Assembly: GCA_038890745.1 (NCBI GenBank) | Contig: JAWAFD010000002.1 | Span: 160,001-224,000 of the forward strand | Origin: Candidatus Anstonellales archaeon | GTDB lineage: Archaea; Micrarchaeota; Micrarchaeia; Anstonellales; J096 | Direction of reading: 5' to 3' | Length of the DNA: 64,000 nt | Part shown: positions 6,821-43,900 of the stretch, piece after piece | Numbering within the stretch: position 1 is the first letter of the stretch | How the letters are laid out: every line of letters starts with the position of its first letter | Translations under genes and position numbers: made by a program | Notes under the pieces: model-generated | The model's database searches: none | Told to the model about the DNA's origin: nothing | The model's input: the letters and a program-made list of their open reading frames with translations, nothing else

Positions 6821-7192
6821 TTACTCTGTTTCGCAGATAACAAATCCCTCAGATGTTTTCTTTATCGTAATGTTCTCTCCTTCAGCAAACGCGTTCTTTT
6901 CCATCACAACTATTCCCTTTACTGGCCTACATTCTTCTATTACAACTGCGTTCTCAAAATCAAATATACTGAAACCTTTTGATGATGCGTTGTAAACACA
7001 ATCGCCTTCGGCTTTTTCTATAGCTTTTATTTCATTTGCTCCGACGCTCGCGAAATAGCACATACCACCTCCTCCAGTATTTTCGGTTTCAACCTCGGCA
7101 CCCTTCGCAACCTTCTCAACTATCGCAACTCCTATGAGAAGAAGGACAATCGCAAAAAAAATCAAAGCAACCTGCTCGTACGCAATCTCCAT
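6821..7192 (-). CDS. Pilin-like protein (N-terminal hydrophobic helix)
   Basis: MEIAYEQVALIFFAIVLLLIGVAIV; Cys-containing small domain; last gene of pilus ATPase operon. Confidence 0.65.
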   Translation of the reverse strand: MEIAYEQVALIFFAIVLLLIGVAIVEKVAKGAEVETENTGGGGMCYFASVGANEIKAIEKAEGDCVYNASSKGFSIFDFENAVVIEECRPVKGIVVMEKNAFAEGENITIKKTSEGFVICETE

Positions 7193-7201
7193 ACAACTCC
7201 C

Positions 7202-7585
7202 TTACCGTATGATCACAGTATCATCGCTCACCCTGTACCCTATTACAATCGTTCCGCTTATCTCCCTCTCAACTTCAGTAAAGTTGAGCTTGCCGGCAGC
7301 CCTCTTTACATCGTTCACATCCGCGCCAACAACAACATAACACTCTTCAACCTCTTTTTCCGGTGTGAGCTGATGCCACCGGTTGTAGCAGCTCTGCATC
7401 AGGCCGGAAAGCCCCTCCTCCCCTATATTTCCATGTATTATTTCTACTCCTTCTTTGGTTTTGTTCTGCTCGAACTGCTCGAAGGATATTTTCGAGAAAA
7501 GGGTGTTTATCACCCCTATTATCATCGCAAGAACTATAAGCGCAATCGCAAGCCTGATTAGGCTCTCAAAAGCAAGCTCAGCCAA
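7202..7585 (-). CDS. Pilin-like protein
   Basis: MAELAFESLIRLAIALIVLAMII; C...CY motif shared with neighbours. Confidence 0.65.
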   Translation of the reverse strand: MAELAFESLIRLAIALIVLAMIIGVINTLFSKISFEQFEQNKTKEGVEIIHGNIGEEGLSGLMQSCYNRWHQLTPEKEVEECYVVVGADVNDVKRAAGKLNFTEVEREISGTIVIGYRVSDDTVIIR

Positions 7586-7979
7586 CTATCCTCACCCCTC
7601 CCTCCACCTTCTCTACTTTTATAACGCTCTTTCCATCAACGCTCGTAACATTCACCTGAAAGTTCAATCCAGCGCTTTCCAGCGCAGATCTTAGCGTTGC
7701 TTCGCTGAACCCATTTTCCTTATAAGCGACAAAACAAAGCCCGATTTCTTTTGAGTTGCAGCTTATGGCCATTGCGACAACATCCCCCTCTCCATTAACC
7801 TTTATGCTTTCCTGCTTCGGCTGGCAGGATGTTTCCCCTCCAAAAAGCCCGGCGAAAGAGGATGCCTCGCAGTACTGCTCCTCGCCCGCGCTTATTATTT
7901 TAGGTATGATGAGCAGCAGCGCCGCTAGGCTCAAAAGCGCAATCGTAATATACACAACACTCCTCAGCGCTATCTCCAT
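7578..7979 (-). CDS. Pilin-like protein
   Basis: MEIALRSVVYITIALLSLAALLLII; C...CF motif shared with neighbours. Confidence 0.65.
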   Translation of the reverse strand: MEIALRSVVYITIALLSLAALLLIIPKIISAGEEQYCEASSFAGLFGGETSCQPKQESIKVNGEGDVVAMAISCNSKEIGLCFVAYKENGFSEATLRSALESAGLNFQVNVTSVDGKSVIKVEKVEGGVRIVG

Positions 7980-8036
7980 GCTCCCACAGAATTCTTATTT
8001 TCTTTTCATTTTTAATTACAAACTTTATATTTATAT

Positions 8037-8447
8037 TCATTTTGTTTTTGTTAGCTTCTCTTTTATTTTTTCCGCGACTTTGAGAATATGGTTTAAATCC
8101 TTATACACCCTCTCAAGAATTTCTTCATCGAGCGCATGATAGCGATGTGCAACCATATTCCTAAACCCAACTGCGTTTATCATTATTTTTAAGTCTCTAT
8201 CATCAATTACCCCGATCCTTCTCATGCTCTCAAATACTTCAAAGTATGTTGAAGCATATTGAGATGGGGTTTTTGCTAAGAAGAGTTCTGCAAGTTCTAT
8301 TGTATAATTTACAACCTGAAATAATTCCATAGTTAACGCGGACGTTAAAATCTGATCAAACCTATTCTCTTTCCATTTACCATATACCTTTTTTGAGATT
8401 TCGGCGTGATATTTTATATCTTTCATTATCATATCTATTTTACTCAT
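8037..8447 (-). CDS. HEPN ribonuclease toxin (HepT/DUF86-like)
   Basis: GFRNMVAHRY = Rx4HxY motif; 4-bp overlap with upstream MNT. Confidence 0.88.
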   Translation of the reverse strand: MSKIDMIMKDIKYHAEISKKVYGKWKENRFDQILTSALTMELFQVVNYTIELAELFLAKTPSQYASTYFEVFESMRRIGVIDDRDLKIMINAVGFRNMVAHRYHALDEEILERVYKDLNHILKVAEKIKEKLTKTK

Positions 8448-8812
8448 TCTTTGGCCCCCTGAACCCGGTATAATCTTTCCATATCATGATACTCCATCAT
8501 GCTTTTTGCTATAATCTCCTGAAGTTTTTTCATGTTTCTAACAAAAACAAGCCTACCTTCTTTTATCACACTAAACTTTATCTGTGGTGGGAATTTGTTA
8601 AAGACACCAACATCGATCGTTTCATTCTTATACCCATATATTTCCAAAACATGTTCTGGGTCTGTTTTTTTAAGCACAACGGCGACGTCAACATCCGATA
8701 GAGGATGCATTTTTTTTGTTTCATATGAGCCAAAAACAAAAATGGCGAGAACATTATTTATTTTTTTGAGCCTGCTTATAATGTTTGCCAATTTTTCATC
8801 CAGCTTTTTCAT
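8444..8812 (-). CDS. Minimal nucleotidyltransferase antitoxin (MntA-like)
   Basis: FGS-x10-DVD (GSYETKKMHPLSDVD). Confidence 0.9.
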   Translation of the reverse strand: MKKLDEKLANIISRLKKINNVLAIFVFGSYETKKMHPLSDVDVAVVLKKTDPEHVLEIYGYKNETIDVGVFNKFPPQIKFSVIKEGRLVFVRNMKKLQEIIAKSMMEYHDMERLYRVQGAKE

Positions 8813-8846
8813 ACCATCACATCTCTCTTATGCTTTGAAAAGTTTA

Positions 8847-9167
8847 TTAGCTTTTCCACGCGGTCACAACAATTGTTCCGTTTTCTCTCGCTATCTTTAT
8901 ATCTGTCGCTCCATCCTCCCAGTATTTTATGCTTATTCCATTCAATTCCAAAACGGTTTTGTTCACATTACCCATTTTCCCAACATAACATTCCTTCCAT
9001 TCCCCGCTGCATTCCCTCGCAATTCTTAACACATCATCAGTGTTTACGTACTCTGTTGTCTGCAAAATTCCACCAGCTTTTGCGATAACAACAAAAATTA
9101 AAATTAGCACCGCGATCACAGCAATTGCTTCTATGAACAATGCCTCTCCGCCACCCTTTTTTGCCAT
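8847..9167 (-). CDS. Type IV pilin-like protein with class III signal peptide
   Basis: MAKKG|GGEALFIEAIAVIAVLILIFVVI; C...CY motif shared with 7202/7578 ORFs. Confidence 0.7.
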   Translation of the reverse strand: MAKKGGGEALFIEAIAVIAVLILIFVVIAKAGGILQTTEYVNTDDVLRIARECSGEWKECYVGKMGNVNKTVLELNGISIKYWEDGATDIKIARENGTIVVTAWKS

Positions 9168-9197
9168 AGCAGCAATTTGTTCCTATCTCCTTAAAAA

Positions 9198-11018
9198 CTA
9201 TATTGCAATCCCGGAGATCAGCAGATTGAGTAAAGCCCATGAGGCAATGAGCGAAACAATATACACGGTGAAGCCCACAAAGATGTTTTTTGCAATAGTG
9301 TAAGCCCTTCCAACCTCATCATACCCCTGTTTTATTCCGCTCTCAAACATCCCCAGTATTATGAGCATCTCCAAAACATAAAATCCAATGATAAACTGCA
9401 TATCAACAGATGAGAAAGCAGCACCCCCAAAGGAGAATATTCCAAACCCCTCAGCCCCGTGCGCCTTTTTGCTCATCACAATTATGAATTTTGCGATCAG
9501 GTCCCCAAATGCGACAGCCACGCCTCCTACAAGCGGCATGATGAATGTGCTCATCATGGAAACAGTGTTCGTTATTTCAGAAAGCATTTCGTTTACCCGC
9601 GCGTTGATTTCAAAGGTTCTGTCCAAATACTCTGCTGCTTTTATTGTTGATGCTGCTGTCTGCCTTGGACCTTTCTCTGCACTTTCCGAAATCACGTAAA
9701 GAATGTCCGAGATCATCACGCTAGGGTACTCCTTTATTACACCCTCCCTTCCGAATATCGCTCCCTTCAAGGTTTTTCCTTCAATCTTAATTTTCTCTAA
9801 AATTTTCCCCCACAGATCCACAGCACCCTTCCTTACTGTTCCTATCTTCCTTCCTTCCTCAACCATCATAGCGATTGCATTCTCTATCGGAATGTTCTGC
9901 CTTAGCACAACAGCCAGCTCCTTCAAGCTTGCCCTGAAATCCTTCTCCATCTCTGAGATTTTGCTCCTTATGTCCATAAGCCCATACGACCTTCCGAAAT
10001 AATATATCCCTATTGCTATCGCGGCGATGTACACGATAAATGCGCTTTCAAAAAGCCCAAAATTTAAGGCAATAACACCTAGCAAAAATGGAACAGAAAT
10101 AATGAGAAATATTGCTGTCGCCGCAATCGGGCTGAAAACATTTTCCCCAATCCTTATCCCTCCATACTTTTCCCTAATTTCTGGTGTGATATGAACGGCA
10201 AGCGTTCCTGGTCTTTTTGCCAAAACAGTAGTGACATAATAGTATGCAACAAGCGGGATGGCTAAGTTAAAAACTATGAACAAAAGCGAGGGAGGAATCT
10301 CTCTCCCAAGGAATATCCCGATAATTGGAATCATTATCAGAAGCATCATCGGAAATAGCATAAGAAAAGAGAAGATAAGCTTGACCGGGTTGGATATTGC
10401 TTCAACATACCTCTGCATCTTTTCATTCGTAGCTGAAAGCTGCAGACTTAGTCCTTTGTCTATTATATCCTCAAACCTAGCGCTCTGCTTTTCGCTTATG
10501 CTCATCTTCAAAAGCTCCAGCACTTTTATAAAAGTTTCATCTAGTTCTCTCAAAATTGAGGCGTGTTTGTCCAGCGCTCTCTCAACATTACTCTCCTCCC
10601 TCATCTCCACAGACCAGCTCACCTTCCTTAAGATATCACCCACGATTCCTTTTGCACTCTTTCCAGCAAACTTTACAGCGCCCTCTAAATTTCTGTTTAT
10701 CCTGATGTATATTGCTAAAAGTAATGATGCAAAAATTATTTCGTTCTGCGCTTCCATCACTACCTGCGTCGCTTCAACGCTTGCCTGGTTATATTTGTAA
10801 TAAAATCCAAAAACAGCAATGAGAATGGAAAGGAACGGAAACCCAAGGATGAGAAAAACAGGAAAAGAAACCACAAACGAAAATATCGCAAAAAGAACCG
10901 CTCCGTTCACAACCGCTTTAGGTTTTTTACCAATAATCCTGCACTCCCTTTCTATATTCTCTTCAAAAATAGTAAGCATCGGAGGAAGTTTTTCCCCAAT
11001 AGCATAGAAAACATCCAT
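9198..11018 (-). CDS. Type IV pilus/T2SS membrane platform protein (TadC/GspF/FlaJ-like, duplicated domain)
   Basis: Two cytoplasmic domains each followed by TM bundles; coupled to upstream ATPase. Confidence 0.82.
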   Translation of the reverse strand: MDVFYAIGEKLPPMLTIFEENIERECRIIGKKPKAVVNGAVLFAIFSFVVSFPVFLILGFPFLSILIAVFGFYYKYNQASVEATQVVMEAQNEIIFASLLLAIYIRINRNLEGAVKFAGKSAKGIVGDILRKVSWSVEMREESNVERALDKHASILRELDETFIKVLELLKMSISEKQSARFEDIIDKGLSLQLSATNEKMQRYVEAISNPVKLIFSFLMLFPMMLLIMIPIIGIFLGREIPPSLLFIVFNLAIPLVAYYYVTTVLAKRPGTLAVHITPEIREKYGGIRIGENVFSPIAATAIFLIISVPFLLGVIALNFGLFESAFIVYIAAIAIGIYYFGRSYGLMDIRSKISEMEKDFRASLKELAVVLRQNIPIENAIAMMVEEGRKIGTVRKGAVDLWGKILEKIKIEGKTLKGAIFGREGVIKEYPSVMISDILYVISESAEKGPRQTAASTIKAAEYLDRTFEINARVNEMLSEITNTVSMMSTFIMPLVGGVAVAFGDLIAKFIIVMSKKAHGAEGFGIFSFGGAAFSSVDMQFIIGFYVLEMLIILGMFESGIKQGYDEVGRAYTIAKNIFVGFTVYIVSLIASWALLNLLISGIAI

Positions 11019-13174
11019 CAATACACCCTCTTCATTTCTTCAAGGCACCATGCCTTCCATCTCTCAAATACCCTAGTTGCATCAACGCTTCCATGCTCCA
11101 CTCTTTCTTCCTCCATTATTTTGTGCAGCGCAGAATTGCTCGCTACAACAAAAGGCGCTTCGAGGATCTTTTCGTTTTTATAGCTAGCCGCAAAATCAAC
11201 AAGCGCTCTTTTAACCTTTGCCCTAAGTTTTATGTTGTCCATGATTTTTGAATAATCCGTCCACCCAGCAACCCTTTCGCCTATTGCTTTCAAAACCTCA
11301 CTCTCTCCATTCAGCAGCACGTCCGTTGGTACAAGACTGTCCTTGTCTGCATCATAAACCATTAAATCCGCAAACCCCATCTCCTCAATCGGGTCCGATT
11401 TCCAGTGCTTCCTTACCTCAGTAATTCTCGTCACCCTTCTGAGTTTTTCCAATCCATCTGGTGTTTTTATCGGATTCGCGATCACGATCAAATCTATTGC
11501 TTTAAATGATGTTGGCGGGACTTCCAGATCATTTACAACCCTGTCAAAAATCCCATATGGGCTTTCACCATGTATGGTTCCTGCAACAACATTCGCAAGC
11601 GCACCTACTCTCATAGCCTCATAAAGCGCCTTTGCTTCTTTGCTTCTCACCTCACCAACAATCAGGCATGAATCTCCGAGCCTCAACGCTGCTTTAATCC
11701 CATCCTCAGCGCTCATCTCACTTCCTTCAACGCTCAGCGCGCTCTTTACTTTGAGCGATAGGATGTCATACCCGAGCTCCTCCATTACCTTTACAGGAAG
11801 CTCGAGCGTGTCTTCTATTGTTACTATCCTGTATTTTTTCATTATCTCAAGCATGCTCGCTCCAAGGAGGGAGGTTTTTCCTGCGCTTCTAGACCCTCCA
11901 AAAAGAATGCACCTTCCATTATCTATCGCGAAGCTGAGAAGGCCTGCGGCCATTTCGTTCATCATCCCTTCCCTTACAAAAAGCGGAAATGTCCATGGTT
12001 TTTCTCTATGTTTTCTTATTGCAAACGCAAGCCCACCGGTGCTAAGCGGTTTATGAACAGAAGCAATCCTTGCACTCAGGCCCGGAATGTTTATAGTTGT
12101 ATCGAGAACAGGGTTTGCCTGGTCCAGAGGTCTACCACTCTCCAACTTAAGCTTTGTCGCCCAGTTCACAACCTCCTCAACATTCGGAATGATATTGCTG
12201 TCGCACTCCTCCCATTTCTCATGGAATATTGCTATTCCCCTTTCACCTGGATTTATGTTTACATCCTGAACATATGGGTCGTGCAGAATAGATTCTATAA
12301 CACCAAACCCGATCGTCGCCCTTGTGATAATGCTCGCTAATTTATCCGCATCCTCAACCTTCAAATTCAATTTCAGCTCCTCTATTTTTGCTATCACCCT
12401 ATCCCTTACATACTCATATATCGCTTCCCTTGCTTCTGTGCTTTCAAGTATCTCAGCTCTTGGGTCCTTTATAACCTCTTCCCTTATTTCACTCACAAGC
12501 CTGTGCTCCATGTCCCCAAGCATGATCTCCGGCGGAGTCAGGTGATAATAATATTTTATTTCATTCCCCATTTTGAATATCCTAACCTTTGCCCCATCCC
12601 TCAGCTCATACTCATCCACAAGCTTTCCATTCGCTGGAAATGTTGTTCTGAACCTAGTTAGAGAAAAAGAAGGCCTTTCTGTTGGCGAGAAAATTTGCAG
12701 GTATATCCCTCGGTCCCCTGCTTTGTATCCAACGAGCTCCTTCTGCACTTTCTTTATTATGTCTGTCTCTTCCAATCTTTGCAGGGTTGGGTCTATGAGC
12801 TCATCAATAATCCATTTTTTGCAGGAGCAGTTTCCTATCACAACCCTTTGCTTAAGCCTCTTCATGAAAACATAAACCCCTACTGGGTCGTCTGCAATCT
12901 CCCTTATTTTATTGAAAAATACTCTTATATCTTCACATGAGCAGTCCTTTGGTGGTGTCTTTCCCTTCAGCTCTGCTGAAAGAGTCTTTATCTTCCTTGC
13001 TAAGTCCTTTATCAACCGTGTATCCTCCAAACCATACTCCACAATCGTTTTTCCTTCTATGATTATTTTTGTTGCCCCAAAATCCTTTGCAATCCTATCT
13101 ACAACCTCTCCGAACAATCTGGCGTCCTTTTCTATGGTTTTTCCGCTTTCCGTTGCTTTTATTACTATCTCCAT
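11018..13174 (-). CDS. Type II/IV secretion system ATPase (TadA/VirB11/FlaI family)
   Basis: Walker A GGSRSAGKTS, TIEDTLEL, ALRLG..LIVGEVRSKEA, GTIHG motifs. Confidence 0.95.
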   Translation of the reverse strand: MEIVIKATESGKTIEKDARLFGEVVDRIAKDFGATKIIIEGKTIVEYGLEDTRLIKDLARKIKTLSAELKGKTPPKDCSCEDIRVFFNKIREIADDPVGVYVFMKRLKQRVVIGNCSCKKWIIDELIDPTLQRLEETDIIKKVQKELVGYKAGDRGIYLQIFSPTERPSFSLTRFRTTFPANGKLVDEYELRDGAKVRIFKMGNEIKYYYHLTPPEIMLGDMEHRLVSEIREEVIKDPRAEILESTEAREAIYEYVRDRVIAKIEELKLNLKVEDADKLASIITRATIGFGVIESILHDPYVQDVNINPGERGIAIFHEKWEECDSNIIPNVEEVVNWATKLKLESGRPLDQANPVLDTTINIPGLSARIASVHKPLSTGGLAFAIRKHREKPWTFPLFVREGMMNEMAAGLLSFAIDNGRCILFGGSRSAGKTSLLGASMLEIMKKYRIVTIEDTLELPVKVMEELGYDILSLKVKSALSVEGSEMSAEDGIKAALRLGDSCLIVGEVRSKEAKALYEAMRVGALANVVAGTIHGESPYGIFDRVVNDLEVPPTSFKAIDLIVIANPIKTPDGLEKLRRVTRITEVRKHWKSDPIEEMGFADLMVYDADKDSLVPTDVLLNGESEVLKAIGERVAGWTDYSKIMDNIKLRAKVKRALVDFAASYKNEKILEAPFVVASNSALHKIMEEERVEHGSVDATRVFERWKAWCLEEMKRVY

Positions 13175-13235: not shown

Positions 13236-14741
13236 TTAAATGTTTCTAAGTAAAGACAGGGCATCATTGATGTCATTCAATAAGTTTCCGTTGCTTTCTC
13301 TTGATGCGATTTCAAGAAGAGTAATGATGCGTTCTTTGGTATTTTCATCCATCTCTGAAACTTCTGTTGAGAATACATACCCGCACAGGATTCTTGGATA
13401 ATGGATGCTCGATAGTGGCACATTTTCCATAAGATTTTCAAAGAGCTTTTTTGCTTCCTTCCTTCTTTCCATATCTTTTAAAGCATACGCCATTATAGTA
13501 TTTGCCAGGACATATGTTTCATCTGTGTATACTTTGAATGGATAGGTCTCTAAGAATTTTGAGATTTCTTGGACTACAGCCCATCTTTTTTCCTTCTGTT
13601 TTCTTAGAGCCTCCATTTTGATCAAAAATATTTTGGGATTTGTTTTTATATGGTGCGGTGCTTTAGATACTACATCCTCAACATCCTTGAACCTGTTTAG
13701 CAAGTAATAAAGCGAGCAGATCGTAGTGTAAGTTACAACATCAGCAATCCTATTCTTCACAGCTTCCTCAAACACCTCCCTAGCCTCCTCTACCATTCCC
13801 CTCTTCCCATACGCATCAATCATAGTGTTATAGGTTACAACATTAGCAATCCCCTTCTTCACAGCTTCCTCAAACACCTCCCTAGCCTCCTCTACTCTTC
13901 CATTCTTCCCATACGCATCAATCATAGCAGTGTAAGTTACAACATCAGCAATCCTATTCTTCACAGCTTCCTCAAACACCTCCCTAGCCTCTTCTACTCT
14001 TCCATTCTTCCCATACGCATCAATCATAGCAGTGTAAGTTACAACATCAGCAATCCTATTCTTCACAGCTTCCTCAAACACCTCCCTAGCCTCCTCTACT
14101 CTTCCATTCTTCCCATACGCATCAATCATAGTGTTATAAGTTACAACATCAGCAATCCTATTCTTCACAGCTTCCTCAAACACCTCCCTAGCCTCCTCTA
14201 CTCTTCCATTCTTCCCATACGCATCAATCATAGCAGTGTAAGTTACAACATCAGCAATCCTATTCTTCACAGCTTCCTCAAACACCTCCCTAGCCTCCTC
14301 TACCATTCCCCTCTTCCCATACGCATCAATCATAGAATTATAGGTTACAACATCAGCAATCCTATTCTTCACAGCTTCCTCAAACACCTCCCTAGCCTCC
14401 TCTACCATTCCCCTCTTCCCATACGCATCAATCATAGAATTATAGGTTACAACATTAGCAATCCTATTCTCCACAGCTTCCTCAAACACCTCCCTAGCCA
14501 AGTCGATGTTGATTTTGCCTAAGAGTTTTATTTTGTAGGTTATTGCAAAAACATTGTTTGGATTTGATTTGAGAATCTCATCAATTTTATTCAATGCTTC
14601 ATAGATTCTGCCCTGTTTTTCAAGGTTCTTCGCTTCTCGCATGAGTCGTTTTGGGTTTTTGTTTTCATCGAGCGGGTCAGGCCACTGACCCCGACCGTGA
14701 TGGCTATGCCTTGCATTTCCTGGCTTTCTGAATCCCCTCAT
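13236..14741 (-). CDS. Pentatricopeptide-repeat (P-class-like) protein with TPR-like caps
   Basis: Seven 34-aa repeats VVTY[N/T]xMIDAYGKxGxVEEAREVFEEAVKxxIA[D/N] matching the PPR consensus; likely start MRGFRK at 14741 with a TATA-like box ~25 bp upstream. Confidence 0.92.
   Translation of the reverse strand: MRGFRKPGNARHSHHGRGQWPDPLDENKNPKRLMREAKNLEKQGRIYEALNKIDEILKSNPNNVFAITYKIKLLGKINIDLAREVFEEAVENRIANVVTYNSMIDAYGKRGMVEEAREVFEEAVKNRIADVVTYNSMIDAYGKRGMVEEAREVFEEAVKNRIADVVTYTAMIDAYGKNGRVEEAREVFEEAVKNRIADVVTYNTMIDAYGKNGRVEEAREVFEEAVKNRIADVVTYTAMIDAYGKNGRVEEAREVFEEAVKNRIADVVTYTAMIDAYGKNGRVEEAREVFEEAVKKGIANVVTYNTMIDAYGKRGMVEEAREVFEEAVKNRIADVVTYTTICSLYYLLNRFKDVEDVVSKAPHHIKTNPKIFLIKMEALRKQKEKRWAVVQEISKFLETYPFKVYTDETYVLANTIMAYALKDMERRKEAKKLFENLMENVPLSSIHYPRILCGYVFSTEVSEMDENTKERIITLLEIASRESNGNLLNDINDALSLLRNI
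13740..14453 (-). repeat. Seven tandem 102-bp near-identical repeats encoding the PPR motifs
   Basis: Unit boundaries 13740, 13842, 13944, 14046, 14148, 14250, 14352; degenerate flanking units on both sides. Confidence 0.97.
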
Positions 14742-14836
14742 GATTTTATTGTGTATAAAAATGTTTAAAAATATATATACTTTTTTCCCATTAAAAAGAT
14801 TTTTAAACACTTTCTACTACAGCAATAGGGGGAGAG

Positions 14837-15889
14837 ATGAAAATAATAAAAAACAATGTGGTTCCGTACTATTCTTCTTACGATCAGGATAGAGTACCCA
14901 TCAGCGCATGTATTGCTATGATCAGAGAAATAAGAAAAAGAGGGTATGATGTTGAGATAAGCGAAATAAGCAAAAAAGCGGTCGAGAGGATAGCATCGTG
15001 GGATAGATGGAAGTGGTACGAAGAAGCGGCCGCGTTAGGTTTTTTTTATATTCAGAAAAAAGGAGTTTTTCAAATTTACGACGAGATTTATAAGAAAATA
15101 AAAGAGCGATATAAAGAAAAAAGAAAATTTATGAATATAGTAGGTTTGTATTGGTTAAAATATTTTTATTCCAAGTCTGAGGATGGCTATATTCTAAAAC
15201 CAAGAGAGGAGGTAATCGAGATCCTGAGGTCTTTACCATGCAATGTTTATGATGATATAACAAAAAGAGTCTTTCCAGAAACAGAGAAGCAAAAAAAACT
15301 GAGAGAAATCATTGCAGAGTATCTGGCTTTGGGAAACCGATACATTCCTTTACACAAGCTTTTTGAGATGTTTGAAGCAGCTGGTTATTCTGGTTCCACC
15401 AATTCCCGTCTCCATATCCGCAAGGTTATACGCGGTATTAGTAGTAGAATTGGCACGGAAATTTTGATACTTAACAAAAATGAAGAGTTAAGGTTCTTAC
15501 TTGAAAGGGAGCTTGCTGAATACTCAAAAAAATTTGGCGCGAAAATTACAAAGAGAGAACTTATGAAGCTTTCCGAGAGAGTAGGATACTCAAGGTATAC
15601 CTTTCAAAAGGCGTCCTATACCCAGCTTAAAGCCCTCTGCCCCATGATCGGTGAAAAAATAATCCTTGTCAGCCCGGAGGTAAGACGAAAAGAAATCATC
15701 CATCTTTTTGAAACCGGGAAAATCACTCCTCAGGAAGCTGCAGAGATTCTGTCCACAATATTCCTATTCAATGAAAATAGAATGAAAATTCTTGAGTATC
15801 TGCTTGAGTATAAAAGGTTAAACCGTGCGTTTCCCCGTCATCCCACATCAATGGAAAGAAAAATAATTCATTCTGTTTTGGTGTCATAA
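14837..15889 (+). CDS. Hypothetical basic helical protein
   Basis: 350-aa ORF with GGGGAG SD, divergent from the PPR gene; no recognised motif. Confidence 0.7.
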   Translation: MKIIKNNVVPYYSSYDQDRVPISACIAMIREIRKRGYDVEISEISKKAVERIASWDRWKWYEEAAALGFFYIQKKGVFQIYDEIYKKIKERYKEKRKFMNIVGLYWLKYFYSKSEDGYILKPREEVIEILRSLPCNVYDDITKRVFPETEKQKKLREIIAEYLALGNRYIPLHKLFEMFEAAGYSGSTNSRLHIRKVIRGISSRIGTEILILNKNEELRFLLERELAEYSKKFGAKITKRELMKLSERVGYSRYTFQKASYTQLKALCPMIGEKIILVSPEVRRKEIIHLFETGKITPQEAAEILSTIFLFNENRMKILEYLLEYKRLNRAFPRHPTSMERKIIHSVLVS

Positions 15890-17939: not shown

Positions 17940-18479
17940 ATGCCAGAAGCCGGAAAGGAGTGCGAGTTATACCGGCTAATTGTTATGCGGTATAAGGAGC
18001 TAATAGAAAAAAGCGAGGATAAAACGATAACTGAAGTACGTGCTATGATTTCGCCGTACAATGAATTTATACAGAAAAAGAAAGCTGAACTTCTTTCAGA
18101 TTTCCCTTCGTATGATCCAGAAAAGGACTTTTTCTCAATTGCGCAGAAAGCAATAGAATACATAAAAGGTATAGAAAATATAGAAATGCCGGTGAAATTC
18201 TGGTTGAGTTTTGAGGAGTTGGATAGGCTTAGGGCCGGTAATGTTTACAACCAATCCATCCTTCTTGCATCCCTTTTCCGCGCTCTTGATGGAAAGGATG
18301 TTCTTGTGTACGCAACAGAAAAAGGGAATTTCTATGTTGGCTTTTCCTGGCAGGGATTAAGGTATGCCGTCAACCCGGAAAACGGAGCGATGTTCATAGG
18401 TGAGGATGTCTCAAAACTTTTTCAGGAAGACAGGCCGATGTATGCATTTTCTGATTTGGTTTTTGAATCATTTGATTAA
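17940..18479 (+). CDS. Transglutaminase-like fold protein, probably inactive
   Basis: FWLSFEEL...AGNVYNQSILLASLFRAL aligns with W..P.E.L...GDCED.A.LL.SL.RA but has no Cys. Confidence 0.55.
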   Translation: MPEAGKECELYRLIVMRYKELIEKSEDKTITEVRAMISPYNEFIQKKKAELLSDFPSYDPEKDFFSIAQKAIEYIKGIENIEMPVKFWLSFEELDRLRAGNVYNQSILLASLFRALDGKDVLVYATEKGNFYVGFSWQGLRYAVNPENGAMFIGEDVSKLFQEDRPMYAFSDLVFESFD

Positions 18480-18901
18480 AGATCTGAAAATATCTCTTCG
18501 GGCTCTTTTCTGAATTTTATTCCTTTATCGATTATGATATCTTTCCTTTTTACCGCCCTCTCAAATACTTTTTTGTATTTCTCGAAATTGTTTTTTCCTA
18601 CTAGTACAACGCCATCCTTTAAGCATTCCCAAACAATCGGGTTGTACTGCTTGAGTAAGGATTCAAATTCTTTTGTGGTGTAGCAAATCGGCTCGATAGA
18701 AGTTTTTCCCTTCCAAAAGTCCATTACAGAAGCTATTCTTTCAAAGAAATTCTGCCCAAAATCATCCGAAACGAAGAGAATGTCATAATCGCTTGAGATA
18801 AGATTGTCCCCCCTTGCCCTAGACCCAAACAAAACAGCAAAATTCAGTTTATATTTTTTATCAACTTTGTTTACGAACTCTATAATTTTTCTTTCGACCA
18901 T
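18476..18901 (-). CDS. Minimal nucleotidyltransferase (MNT)
   Basis: LFGSRARGDNLISSDYDIL. Confidence 0.9.
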   Translation of the reverse strand: MVERKIIEFVNKVDKKYKLNFAVLFGSRARGDNLISSDYDILFVSDDFGQNFFERIASVMDFWKGKTSIEPICYTTKEFESLLKQYNPIVWECLKDGVVLVGKNNFEKYKKVFERAVKRKDIIIDKGIKFRKEPEEIFSDL

Positions 18902-19257
18902 TCAAGCACCTTTTTTGCTTTTTTCAACAAATTTTTTGCGGTTTCTTCTGTGTATATCTCAAAGGGTGCCCCTCCGATCGCATCCGGGTAGCGGGATGTT
19001 ATGTAATGCGGGGTTAGGTCTCTGCATGCAAGCGATATATCCAATGGCGCATTCAATAGTTCAGCATACTCGCGGAGGTTGTGGGTCTTTGGAGGCATCT
19101 CTTTTAGTTTTTCGTATGCAACTGCTTTGAGTGCTTTTTCAGCAACCTGATGGGAAAGGAAAGAAACAAGGTCATATGCCTCCTCCTTCAAAAGTTTTTC
19201 AGCATTATGTAAATCAACCTCGGCCTGCTTTATCAGGTATTCGCTCTCCTTTCTCAT
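18880..19257 (-). CDS. HEPN domain protein (COG2250-type)
   Basis: AEVDLHNA, HQVAEKALKA, THNL, YITSRYPD motifs; overlaps MNT. Confidence 0.9.
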   Translation of the reverse strand: MRKESEYLIKQAEVDLHNAEKLLKEEAYDLVSFLSHQVAEKALKAVAYEKLKEMPPKTHNLREYAELLNAPLDISLACRDLTPHYITSRYPDAIGGAPFEIYTEETAKNLLKKAKKVLEWSKEKL

Positions 19258-37900: not shown

Positions 37901-40900
37901 TATTCCTGACCGATTCTACTAATAATAGAGTAGTAAATTTCACTGGCTACAACTCAGCAAATTTTTTCATCATGGACTACAGCGGTTCAAACAACTTTAC
38001 AAATATAACACTAAGAAACGGTGGATGGGCAGGGATATGGATAAGAGGAGTGGATAATTCAATAGTAGATGGTTTTGATATTCAAAACATAACAGAAAGC
38101 GGCGGAGTGGTATATGGTGGTATTTATGTTTCAAGTGGTGGCGATAATAATATAATAAGAAACGGAAAAATATACGATTTGGTTACCTATGGAATTCAAG
38201 TTAACGGAAGTTATAATAATACTATAACAAATGTTACAATATATAACTCTACTTCAGAAAGTGGAATATTCATTTATGAGGATACCGCAGATAACAACAA
38301 AATATACAATTCAACAATTTATAGGAATGCAGATTATGGAATATATGTAAATGGCGCAGATGACCTCCTTATATATAATACCAATATAGAAAACCATACC
38401 TCAGGATACGAGGTTTATCTTTATGCTCCAAGCAGTCTTGTTTCTGTAAGCAATATTTTAATTCAAAACAGCCGGTTTGTAAACAACAAATCCATAAATA
38501 CGATGGGAATTAATGCAATATATGGCTCCAACATTACAGTTGATAACTCAACCTTTACAGGAATTTATATTGGTGCGTATTTCAACCAATCAAATACAAT
38601 TACTATTAAAAATTCAACATTTTTGAGAAACGGAAAAGCAGGGATATTTTTTGATTCCACAACTAGCTCTTCTGTTTTGGATAACGATATAAACGATACC
38701 TATTGGACTTCTGATGACCCAGGAGGAATTTATCTAGGATTCTGCGATTGGAATTCAGTAAATTTTTACAAATTTGAAGGAGGAATAATTCTCTGCTACT
38801 CAAACTATACCCAAATTTCTTATAATTATTTAAAAGGAAATGGAACATGCACAGACAATTGTATCGCTAACCACAATGGCTGCGAAGCAGGAATTTTTAC
38901 TTACAACTCAAAACTAAACAATATTACTTATAACATTTTCAGAAACTCAGGAGACAATTACGATTCTTTATATTTCTACTCTTACGATACAAACTATTGG
39001 TATAACGATCAAAACGGCACAGACCCATTAACAGGAAACAACAATGTAAATGATGGAATAAAATTAGACAATTCAAGAGGATTTAACATTTCTCACTCTA
39101 ATTTCTCAAATAATCGTGAGTGGGGAATTTTTTTGACAAACTCTAACGATACTTACATCTACAACAATACTGCAAGTTATAATACCAATGTGGGTATTCG
39201 TTTAGCTAGCTCAGCAAACAACACAGTAATCTACAACACAGCATTTAAAAATCAACAAGGATTTAGAGTTGAACAATTAGAAGCTATTAATAATATTTTC
39301 AAAGATAATACAGCATATAGCAACTCTTACTACGGTTTCTACCTTTACTTTAGCTCCAACAACACCCTTTCCAATAACACAGCATATAGCAACTCTTACT
39401 ACGGTTTCTACCTTTACTTCAGCTCCAACAACAACACCCTTTCCAATAACACAGCATATAGCAACTCTTACTACGGTTTCTGCCTTTACTTCAGCTCCAA
39501 CAACAACATCCTCTCCAACAACACTGCATATAATAACAATATTTATGGAATTTATCTTTATCAGAATGCAGACAACAACACAATTGTCAATAACACAATA
39601 TATAACAATTCAATTTATCAACTACTTATTAATGAAACCTATCCTTCTTATGATAACAAAATATACAACAACATCTTCAACGCTTCAGCGGGCCAAGGAG
39701 TAGTCTACGATTCAGGAACAAACTATTGGAACACCTCCTATGACTGCACAGGAACAAACATAATAGGTGGAGACTGCATAGGAGGAAACTTCTACTCTAA
39801 CTACACAGGAGCTGATGATGGTTCAGGCGCAACCTATCCTCATAATATTGCAGGGGATGGAATTGGAGACAATCCAGATGACTACTATATCTATGGAGGA
39901 AGCAACATTGACTACCTTCCATTAACAAATCTTAGAACTGCATGCTTCTATGCTGATACCTCAAACACAGTCTATACTTTAACAAGAAACCTCTATGGAA
40001 ACAAATCAGACAGAATCTGCATTACAATAAATGCCTCAAACATTACTATAGATTGTAATGGCTACAATATTACAGGAACATACCCATACACAGGCTACAC
40101 AATAGGAATAGGAAACTATGACTCAAGAAACAATGTTACAATCAAGAACTGTTACATAACCAACTACACATTTGGGATATACGCAAACTTATCAAACCAA
40201 TACAACATTACAAACAACTCATTAGTAGCAAACGGAAAAGCAGGAATTTTCTTTGATTCAACCGAAAACTCCACAATCTGGGATAATGATATAAACGATA
40301 CCTATTGGACTTCTGATGACCCAGGAGGAGATTACTTCCAATTCTGCAACTGGAGTGCAGGGAATTTCTCAAGATTTGAAGGAGGAATAATTCTCTGCTC
40401 CTCAAACTATACCCAAATTTCTTATAATTATTTAAAAGGAAATGGAACATGCGGTGGTGGCGGACCTGGCTGTGGGTCTAACCACAATGGCTGCGAAGCA
40501 GGAATTTTTACTTACAACTCAAAACTCAACAATGTCACCCACAACACATTCAGAAACTCAGGAGACAATTACGATTCTTTATATTTCTACTCTTACGATA
40601 CAAACTATTGGTATAACGATCAAAATGGCACAGACCCATTAACAGGAAACAAAAATGTAAATGATGGAATAAAATTAGACCATTCAAGAGGATTTAACAT
40701 TTCTCACTCTAATTTCTCAAATAACTATGAGTGGGGAATATTCTTTACATGGTCAAATGACTCCTACATATACAACAATACTGCAAGATATTGTGTAGGC
40801 TCAGGTGGAGTTGGTATTCGTTTAGCTCGCTCAGCAAACAACACAGTAATCTACAACACAGCATTTAAAAATCAAGAGGGGTTTAGAGTTGACTACTCAG

Positions 40901-43900
40901 AAGCTATTAATAATATTCTTAAAGATAATACAGCATATAACAACTCATGGTATGGTTTCCACCTTTCCTCCAGCTCCAACAACACCCTCTCCAACAACAC
41001 TGCCTACAGCAACTCTTACTACGGTTTCCACCTTTACTTCAGCTCCAACAACACCCTCTCCAACAACACTGCATATAATAACAATATTTATGGAATTTAT
41101 CTTTATCAGAATGCAGACAACAACACAATTGTCAATAACACAATATATAACAATTCAATTTATCAACTACTTATTAATGAAACCTATCCTTCTTATGATA
41201 ACAAAATATACAACAACATCTTCAACGCTTCAGCGGGCCAAGGAGTAGTCTACGATTCAGGAACAAACTATTGGAACATTTCCTATGACTGCACAGGAAC
41301 AAACATAATAGGTGGAGACTGCATAGGAGGAAACTTCTACTCTAACTACACAGGAGTGGATGATGGTTCAGGCGCAACCTATCCTCATAATATCTATGGA
41401 GATGGGATAGGAGACAATCCAGATGACTACTATATCTATGGAGGAAGCAATGTTGACTATCTGCCATTAACGAACAACCAAACATTGTGCTTCTATGCTG
41501 ATACCTCAAACACCGTATATACTTTAACAAGAAATCTCTATGGAAACAAATCAGATGGAAACTGTATTACCATAGTTGATTGGACTACAAACATTACAAT
41601 AGACTGCAATGGGTATAATATTACTGGTTGGGGTGTAGGAAAGGGCATATTCTCTGCCTATTCAAGCCACAATACTATAAAGAACTGCAACATAAGAAAC
41701 TATACCTATGCGATGGACTTAAGGGTAGGACAAAACATTTCAGTTTTCAACAATAACATTACAAACAATACAAATGGAATTGCATTGATTGTAGACATAA
41801 AACATTCAAGGCTTTACAATAACTATTTCTATGATAACACTGGAAGCAGTTTTTACATGGTATATGGTTGCGATAATGTAAGTTTTTACAACAATACGAT
41901 TGAAAAAAGTGGTGGTTGGGCTATTTCTCTCAGGGATACTACTACAAATTCAAGAATAGAAAACAACACTATTTTTAATGGAGATAATGTTGGTATTGGT
42001 CTTTATCCCAGCGACACTCTAAACAATACAATAAAAGGAAATAGCATATATAACCAAGGTTCATATGGTATATATCTTAGTTCTGGCACTAACAATAACA
42101 CAATTTCAGATAATATTGTTTATAACACTACAAACTACCAAATTGCTATATCTTCTTCTAGCGACAACCTTATCTACAACAACATCTTCAACGCTTCAGC
42201 GGGCCAAGGAGTAGTCTACGATTCAGGAACAAACTATTGGAACATTTCCTATGACTGCACAGGAACAAACATAATAGGTGGAGACTGCATAGGAGGAAAC
42301 TTCTACTCTAACTACACAGGAGTGGATGATGGTTCAGGCGCAACCTATCCTCATAATATCTATGGAGATGGGATAGGAGACAATCCACCAAACTATTCTA
42401 TATACGGAGGAAGTAACTGGGATTATTTACCACTTACCAATAACATAACTTATGCAAGATGCTTTTATGCAAACATTTCAAACACTGTTTATACGCTATC
42501 AGGAAATCTCTATGGAAACAAATCAGACAGAATCTGCATTACAATAAATGCTTCAAACATTACAATAGATTGCAATGGATATAATATTACTGGCAACCAC
42601 TCGCTTACTGAAAACACTATAGGAATAGGAAGCTATGTTGGATGGGAAAATGTTACGATACAAGGCTGTCATGTGAGTAATTATACATACGGCGTATATG
42701 CGTATTCGTTTAATAACACGCTAATTGATGAACTGAATTCTATCAGAAATCATTTTGGAATTTACCTCAATCAAACAACGAACTCAAACATTACAAACAG
42801 CAAGATAGAAGTTTATAATGAAACCGCATGGAGTAGAGGAATCTATCTAGTAAATTCAAGCGGAATAAGAATTTCATCTTCTCATATAAACCGAACAGGT
42901 TTAACCTCTGCGCCATGGGCGATTGGAATTATGCCGTGCGCTACAAACGATACTATAATTGAAAGTTCAAACTTTACAGATAGACTAACAAGGTCTATAT
43001 TTGTAAGCATATGCAGAGAAGTCGACGGGACAGAATTCCAAGCACCGACCTATAATCTTACAATAAAAGATAATCATTTCTGGAATACAGAAACTGTTAT
43101 AGCCCTATGGGTTAATTATAACACTTCAATAATCAATAACACAATTGAGTATTACAGAGGATATGGAATTGTTTCTGGGTATTTAGGTCTGCCAGGTGAA
43201 TATTGGGATTTGCTCATAGAGAATAATACAATAAGGAACGCTACTAATTGTCTAGATGACCCATCCTACTCAGGCCATATGACCGGGATATACATAGATA
43301 CAAACAGCGGAGGATGGACGGTTAGGGGAAACAGAATAGAGTACATGCCTACATTGGGAATAGATTTGGATGGAGTTGGAGGGTATTCTTATGATATGCT
43401 TTTTGAAAATAATGTGTTCAATCATACTGGAGAGAATGATTATGGAGCGGGATGTAATCCAACTCCAAATATGGGTGGCGTTTATTTTGGAGGGATTGAA
43501 AATTCAACAGTGCAGAACAATATTGTTGAGAATTTTGGTTCATCGATTGGAATAAATTTTTGGTGGAGGGAAAACCAAAATGTTTTGGTTCAGAATAATA
43601 CTGTTTTCAATGGGAATGCAACGGGAATTGGAGGGTCTGGAACTCAGAATAACATAACAGTTCGGAATAATACTGTTAGTTTTGCCCGAGCAGGTATTGG
43701 ATTCAGTTCTACAAGCAATTCAGCTTTTTATAATAACACAGTACACGATAATACTAAAGAAGGTATCGCTATTTCAAACGGGTATAATAATACATTGCAG
43801 GACAATCTTGCCTATGCGAATATGTACGGCATTTCGTTGAACAATGTTGTTAACCATACTTTGTTGAATAACAATATGACCAACAACCGATATAACTTCT

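Follow-up and report, generated by a model that had tools for sequence, protein, structure and literature searches.

An open reading frame for 501 aa on the minus strand (13236..14741) of the 64,000-nt stretch of an Anstonellales archaeon genome analysed here (the window) encodes, as judged by profile search and predicted fold, a PPR-type alpha-solenoid protein. The reading that we prefer, with a probability of roughly 0.55, is that this protein is a code-following reader of single-stranded RNA whose repeats are reshuffled and which is aimed at a fast-changing, probably foreign target. From the start codon onwards, all on the minus strand, the product consists of a basic N-terminal arm (residues 1-28, 14658..14741; 9 K/R/H against 3 D/E), predicted to be disordered with pLDDT below 50 at residues 1-22; a TPR-like helix pair (residues ~30-63, 14553..14654) with helices at 30-42 and 46-59 and the best Pfam TPR_2 stretch at 32-63; an N-terminal degenerate PPR (residues 64-96, 14454..14552) of 33 aa, in which the missing residue falls in the A/B turn; seven 102-bp repeats encoding 34-aa PPR motifs (13740..14453); a capping degenerate PPR (residues 335-368, 13638..13739); and a C-terminal helical domain (13239..13637) that defines the family, with the motifs EA.RK and R.LCG.VF, a generic TPR-like fold and no enzyme match.

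The initial annotation, made from the letters alone, had described seven near-identical 102-bp repeats encoding 34-aa PPR motifs, and these were recovered on the minus strand at 14453-13740. Tandem Repeats Finder reported the interval 13729-14499 with a period of 102, 7.6 copies, 94% matches, 0 indels and a score of 1311. The seven full repeats differ pairwise at 0-12 of 102 nt, with 13 variable sites, and repeats 1 and 2 are identical. Amino-acid variation is confined, as had been annotated, to positions 5, 6, 14, 16, 30, 31 and 34, and the fifth/last pairs form the same series as read before, ND ND TD ND TD TN ND. The TN pair assigned to both degenerate flanking repeats was also found, as T/N in residues 335-368 on the C-terminal side and as T68/N96 on the N-terminal side, where the register was set by alignment with 7 homologous stretches. 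V2 and K13 are present in 7/7 repeats, positions 12-13 being an invariant GK in PPR register, and the capping repeat lacks K13, a residue described as a phosphate contact (PMC13041630). The repeat is one residue shorter than that of designer PPRs, as noted initially, with the gap in the loop after helix B. Reassortment of the variable blocks held as well: NT is combined with NGR as well as with RGM, and four gametes are present at 5/28 informative site pairs.

Across the seven homogeneous archaeal arrays compared, variation at the last position is seen in 7/7 and at position 5 in 4/7 (permutation P 0.0018, with positions varying anywhere as the baseline), and the position varying most often after 34 does so in 5/7. 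The scan behind this comparison admitted only N, S, T or A as the fifth residue, and the result is therefore silent on residue identity. When positions 5 and last were masked in detection, 35/37 pairs from nine homogeneous proteins were canonical (flanking repeats included, with seeds from homogeneous arrays), versus 44/102 in 58 others. The initial annotation had named random fifth/last pairs in homologues as evidence against a code, and such pairs were thus not the rule in homogeneous arrays. In 6/6 arrays with DNA, codon 34 is polymorphic between GAY and AAY, and 56/204 codons are amino-acid-variable compared with silent variation at 15/141 silent-capable codons, which gives no clear excess per replacement site. 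Repeat identity is 0.84-0.94 within arrays and 0.57-0.80 between them, and on a tree built from 42 selected rows the homogeneous label has to change at least four times.

These data bear on an alternative that we regard as possible though rather doubtful, in which the protein would be a low-specificity RNA binder or chaperone, its repeats slipping without selection by any target and its consensus D/N and N/T/S residues being seeded from fixed array ends. In 5/5 multi-repeat relatives the first junction carries D and the last junction N; fixed ends could therefore seed D/N without selection, which weakens the permutation and codon-34 tests, and both tests treat related arrays as independent. 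The first 15 nt of the T5 block in the window array recur in the capping repeat. Asp and Asn suit a helix cap, and canonical pairs may reflect structure, as N/T/S and D/N are plain PPR consensus too. The same alternative is favoured by many relatives with 0-2 recognisable repeats and non-canonical pairs, and by the non-convergent targets and absent genomic signature described below. Against it, S5 occurs in alleles and in the gene of genome G102 and is supplied by neither array end; in four arrays an identical neighbouring block carries D in some repeats and N in others, so that the residue switches while the block is unchanged; and position 34 varies in all seven arrays, which holds for no other position.

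Comparison of alleles argues for a reader with a changing code. The protein cluster of the window gene has four members. Allele P0271 differs at 3 of its first 96 residues and carries the pairs TD ND SN N.. from its start; allele P0123 differs at 1 of its last 167 residues and ends with ..N, NN; and allele P0272 has an end like that of the window protein. In a repeat contig from metagenome run X3 codon 5 is AGT (Ser), which the window lacks, and this repeat is therefore no reshuffling artefact; X3 and P0271 are possibly not independent. Across alleles, the blocks 5-6, 14-16 and 30-34 appear in new combinations. The early proposal that recombination between repeats could rewrite specificity is thus borne out by P0271, P0123 and X3, and the code, as read from these sequences, changes within the population. 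Comparison of repeat number and order in homologues, which had been suggested as a check, revealed differences both among near-identical alleles and among relatives. P0114 and L051 have 101 N-terminal and 162 C-terminal residues in common and contain 1 and 7 different repeats, respectively. L050 equals L042 plus 408 bp at a flank identity of 99.76%, a difference that is either real or an assembly collapse, and short forms in relatives may accordingly be assembly collapses.

The PPR gene is an accessory insertion of ~1.5 kb. The segment 13250..14792 is absent between the same flanking genes in two genomes of the same genus (G001 and G002), where these genes lie ~130-145 bp apart; no target-site duplication was seen, and the last codons of the ORF with the stop (13236-13249) lie within the sequence that aligns to the empty site. 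One flanking gene, for a VirB11/FlaI-type pilus assembly ATPase (11018..13174, minus strand), adjoins the other flanking gene in both genomes and is not part of the system. The other, divergent gene (14837..15889, plus strand) encodes 350 aa without family match and was found within the genus only, among 61 genomes searched. Its product shows 36-55% identity in two other genomes of the genus, where the neighbouring ATPase shows 90%. No conserved gene neighbourhood was found among the 9 loci listed. The window also contains a pilus-like cluster at 6821-13174, consisting of the VirB11/FlaI-type ATPase, a membrane platform-like protein and several small pilin-like ORFs; two nucleotidyltransferase plus HEPN/HepT pairs of toxin-antitoxin type at 8037-8812, inside the pilin cluster, and at 18476-19257; and tandem repeats at 39305-39608 (72-bp) and 40958-41086 (69-bp) in a low-GC part. 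Rfam families and tRNAs were searched for within the 64-kb window and none was found.

The closest relative of the window gene lies in G102, a genome of another family, with 57% identity over the C-terminal domain, versus 46% for the copy that G002 carries elsewhere in its genome, and the tree places the window gene as sister to the G102 gene with support of 100/94. The two genes have in common a TATA-like box and short leader (14742..14774, minus strand; a 36-bp match at 91.7%), which is likely, from its sequence, to be the promoter of a leaderless mRNA; a TATA-like box lies ~25-30 bp above the start in 10/11 upstream stretches, two of them from the same organism. These sequence relationships indicate that the PPR gene has likely passed between lineages.

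In the mechanism that we propose, the 34-residue PPR solenoid would bind a short single-stranded RNA, one base per repeat, following the plant fifth/last code. Unequal exchange between the 102-bp units would delete, add and recombine the blocks 5-6, 14-16 and 30-34, and would so generate new readings, AGUAY... in the case of P0271. By the plant code the window allele would read (A)UUGUGAU(A) (AUUGUGAUA), a predicted site specific to this allele in which the leading A, from the N-terminal degenerate repeat aligned with homologous flanks, is of low confidence. The pair NN, present in P0123, reads U or C. TD and SD have been assigned to G and TN and SN to A (PMC5075784), N5 pairs with pyrimidines and a last D with U (PMC11094755), and the "fifth and last" rule is described as extending to other motif lengths (PMC13041630). 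Seven to nine repeats make a short site compared with the ~11 motifs reported as optimal (PMC11094755). The predicted 9-mer has 8 exact matches in the genome of the organism itself and the 7-mer has 186.

Searches for a target among the RNAs of the organism itself gave chance-level or negative results. TTGTGAT occurs 111 times in the coding strands of the genome against 117.5 expected, neither enriched nor depleted; it lies upstream of 5/873 ORFs and in none of the 20 tRNAs found in the source genome (G000), and the predicted 8-mer is absent from the 16S and 23S rRNA including their insertions. No convergence of predicted targets was detected across 8 arrays (P 0.86 and 0.51), the G102 reading in this comparison assuming that its two contig ends overlap. 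Individual candidates were rejected as well. The sarcin-ricin loop, considered as a common target, is mismatched to the window allele, and AGTAY occurs 17 times in the 23S region of the genome. A bulged opposite-strand match upstream of the gene (~14748-14756, found by eye), which might indicate autoregulation, was taken for chance because G102 has the same upstream sequence but another code. A role as an RNase P subunit was set aside, HARP being present with or without the PPR gene.

It is unlikely, therefore, that the protein is a code-following reader of a fixed RNA of its own cell, such as an mRNA leader, an rRNA insertion or a tRNA precursor. Organelle PPRs do act in this way (PMC11897456, accessible text), rRNA insertions are many in this genome, and no match to RNase P RNA was found in G000, G001, G002 or G083. 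The motif, however, is at chance level or absent where such a target would lie, the readings do not converge, and HARP occurs with or without the PPR gene, being present in 5/5 genomes tested, among them G001, where the PPR search gave no match; moreover, the code is not the same in all alleles, and the gene is missing from this site in two congeners. Both RNase P RNA and HARP were found in G094 and G102.

The weakest step in the preferred reading is the last one, that the target would be viral, mobile-element or host-cell RNA and not a fixed RNA of the organism itself. We infer a foreign target because the gene is accessory and because the sites predicted for it do not persist and show no convergence; no homologue was found in the two virus collections searched. 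The fuller version of this reading, a mobile and naturally reprogrammable RNA-recognition module of Micrarchaeota that recombination rewrites to track viral, mobile-element or host RNA, is put forward tentatively. Since the protein has no catalytic domain, it would act by covering its site, thereby blocking translation, folding or cleavage, or alternatively by recruiting a partner via the TPR-like end domain.

AlphaFold2 predicted an all-helical solenoid (mean pLDDT 84.6) with a disordered basic arm. The ten best Foldseek matches are all designer PPRs, at 39-53% identity, with cPPR-Telo1 structures first, and the solved structures closest in both sequence and fold are those of designer PPRs in complex with RNA or ssDNA. 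The top rank of cPPR-Telo1 raises an improbable alternative, that the protein reads single-stranded DNA by the same code, as designer PPRs are reported to bind ssDNA by the same rules at lower affinity (PMC13041630). The cPPR-Telo1 matches, however, are designed proteins that rank high through consensus likeness, natural PPRs bind RNA in the accessible literature, and among the 9 loci listed neither replication nor mobile-element genes recur as conserved neighbours. Residues 335-501 were predicted to be all-helical (pLDDT 96.9), and their fold search returned generic TPR folds only (best Z 14.3, rmsd 3.1, 154 aligned). The annotated lack of a catalytic domain agrees with this, the fold and Pfam comparisons containing no enzyme. 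No SMR, deaminase or metallonuclease domain was present among the Pfam matches listed for 17 aligned members, and an Atlas search returned TPR and PPR clusters and nothing beyond. Membership in the PPR-SMR, PPR-DYW and PRORP groups was rejected, as the C-terminal part is all-helical and TPR-like.

The identification as a PPR protein made initially was confirmed by profile and predicted fold: PF01535 gave 262.7 bits (cut-off 25) with an E value of 2.9e-81 and 7 stretches, the seven repeats scoring 45.7-42.7 bits each, and TIGR00756 gave 242.1 bits for the 501-aa protein (cut-off 20). The strict P-class, with its 35-residue motif, was rejected for the 34-residue motif of the window; the length excludes that class and not the PPR family, because PPR motifs span 31 to 36 residues (PMC11514114). 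A length of 34 residues also fits TPRs, whole-protein TPR scores exceed cut-offs, the protein has TPR-like ends, and a pilus ATPase gene is adjacent, all of which would suit a protein-binding TPR-like solenoid with a role in, for example, pilus assembly. This we consider very improbable: the best TPR model reached 106 bits with 0 passing stretches, most TPR models likewise having 0 and falling far below the PPR score, the code positions vary most consistently, the neighbouring genes differ between loci, and at this site the gene has been inserted.

Seven metagenome runs contain part of the stretch, and the best four, from one study labelled hot springs metagenome, were compared. In run X1 the sequence of both flanks is matched exactly (0 differences) and continues into repeat sequence, and two repeat contigs have 3.04 and 5.39x the flank depth, where seven copies predict 3.46 and 5.74. 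An array of seven copies therefore fits the contig depth; the order of the repeats comes from the assembly alone, as no run contig spans the array. X1 is possibly the source sample, and the depth ratios thus check the assembly and are not independent support. In run X4, ~11-12 copies were inferred (depth 128.5-141.5 versus flanks at 10.9-12.3), contig depth being unreliable for such counts, and one contig pair is inconsistent with a simple two-variant reading. The source genome has 989,524 bases and is 93.8% complete, and the array is its sole PPR locus. An origin of the array by misassembly or eukaryotic contamination is hardly credible: despite the identity of repeats 1 and 2, the lack of a contig across the array and the breaks of relatives' contigs within theirs, the X1 depth ratios fit, run contigs join both flanks to repeats, the 314-kb contig carries archaeal genes, contamination of the genome is 0.12%, and the PPR family is present across many Micrarchaeota records.

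The C-terminal domain has matches in 21/401 genomes of the phylum; one of the 21 is a CTP synthase-like sequence, read as false, and in a further G102 match the domain is N-terminal in its protein. The PPR profile has matches in 23/401 genomes, 14 over the cut-off. Of the loci in genomes with titles, 8/8 are from Micrarchaeota, and P0067 likewise. In the 207 sequences compared overall, with the profile search contributing the best 150 of 3999 matches, at least 135 contain the C-terminal domain, at least 105 of them distinct. Of the family repeats detected, 111/139 are 34 aa long; most members are degenerate, and 38/105 have no repeat passing the scan. The sequences thus describe a patchy Micrarchaeota family with TPR, 34-residue PPRs and a TPR-like end domain, without an enzyme. 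The rarity of such proteins was overstated in the initial annotation, as the family has ~100 distinct members and PMC11514114, in its accessible part, counts 49 archaeal and 1288 bacterial PPR entries; the accessible text of PMC11897456, by comparison, reports prokaryotic PPRs as absent. No paper on an archaeal PPR family was found in a literature search whose coverage stopped short of most subscription journals and supplements. No virus-borne homologue was detected in 50,697 phage records or in viral contigs at the sensitivity used, and a word-index search with the C-terminal domain returned 0/192 candidates though relatives exist, a sensitivity-limited result. A second Micrarchaeota group (L060, L061, L064, L065, L070, L071) encodes proteins of 270-300 aa in which the arm, the TPR and 34-aa PPR-like repeats recur but the C-terminal domain is absent.

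P-class proteins and designer cPPR and dPPR (PDB 5i9h, 5orq, 4wsl, 6een) resemble the window protein in their helix-turn-helix repeats, polar fifth and last residues, K13 and near-monotonous array. The window protein differs from them in its 34-residue length, repeats homogenised at the DNA level, natural archaeal origin, TPR-type ends and lack of an organelle. By analogy, plant RFL PPRs are the closest counterpart: as described in the accessible part of PMC5075784, they share motif gain and loss, recombination, high fifth/last variation, changing predicted targets and the lack of a nuclease. They have 15-20 motifs of 35 aa and form paralogue clusters, in contrast to the 7 motifs and one locus per genome seen here, where exchange takes place inside one gene between near-identical repeats and the gene moves between lineages.

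In TAL effectors, too, the 34-residue repeats are nearly identical, and recombination can rewrite their order. The description "TALE-like" given at first stands for the evolution of the array by repeat shuffling, and fails for the fold and the recognition residues, which differ. TAL effectors belong to a different repeat family; the window array varies at 5 and 34, and its predicted ligand is single-stranded. Membership among TAL effectors was rejected on the invariant GK at 12-13 and on the spread of the variable positions over three blocks, and a TAL repeat is absent among 25 of 36 Pfam families listed and among the fold matches listed. The window protein is therefore not a TALE.

Legionella PPR and PPR-SMR proteins and Ralstonia RipL are prokaryotic too, and are described in the accessible parts of PMC2824747, PMC3858433 and PMC3878972 as few and as transfer remnants. 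In the sequences compared here, P0006, P0032, P0080 and P0274-P0283 are bacterial-type PPRs with homogeneous 34- or 36-aa repeats, an SMR-like end and one-repeat length variants of 559/523 and 566/532 aa; one is named Legionella steelei, and the cluster to which it belongs has similar homogeneous repeats in 559- and 523-aa forms. These bacterial forms have 36-aa (or 34-aa) units and what we take, from a DLHG motif, to be an SMR-type end, the archaeal family having a TPR-like domain in that place. P0012, P0017, P0041 and P0066 are metagenome proteins whose 35-aa PPR arrays are unusually homogeneous and whose N-termini resemble transit peptides; a microbial eukaryote is their probable source.

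Among the loci examined, that in the window combines the most homogeneous long array with an allele-level code change and an empty site. If the preferred reading is true, the PPR code would be in use outside organelles, in a lineage-wide archaeal family with code residues that change between strains. One small soluble protein would then test a 34-residue code, prokaryotic reprogramming of RNA readers by repeat shuffling and a symbiont-type archaeal use. On the fuller and more tentative version of the reading, conflicts among prokaryotes would have an RNA-directed equivalent of TAL effectors. The hot-spring repeat, close to consensus, would be a ready scaffold for designed RNA binders.

The rRNA genes of the source genome are rich in insertions, with a 23S gene of 5113 bp (G000:C1:184353-189465, L092) and a 16S gene of ~2770 bp (G000:C3:13670-16436, L098). 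The inserts are 370-793 bp long, accompanied by several hairpin-like mini-inserts of 45-48 bp with a common core. The rRNA genes of G094 and G102 likewise bear ~7-13 inserts per gene, mostly of 39-54 bp; L090, L091, L095 and L096 are further loci of this insertion-rich kind. One G094 insert lies inside the sarcin-ricin loop, and the rRNA inserts may represent a family of mobile mini-introns.
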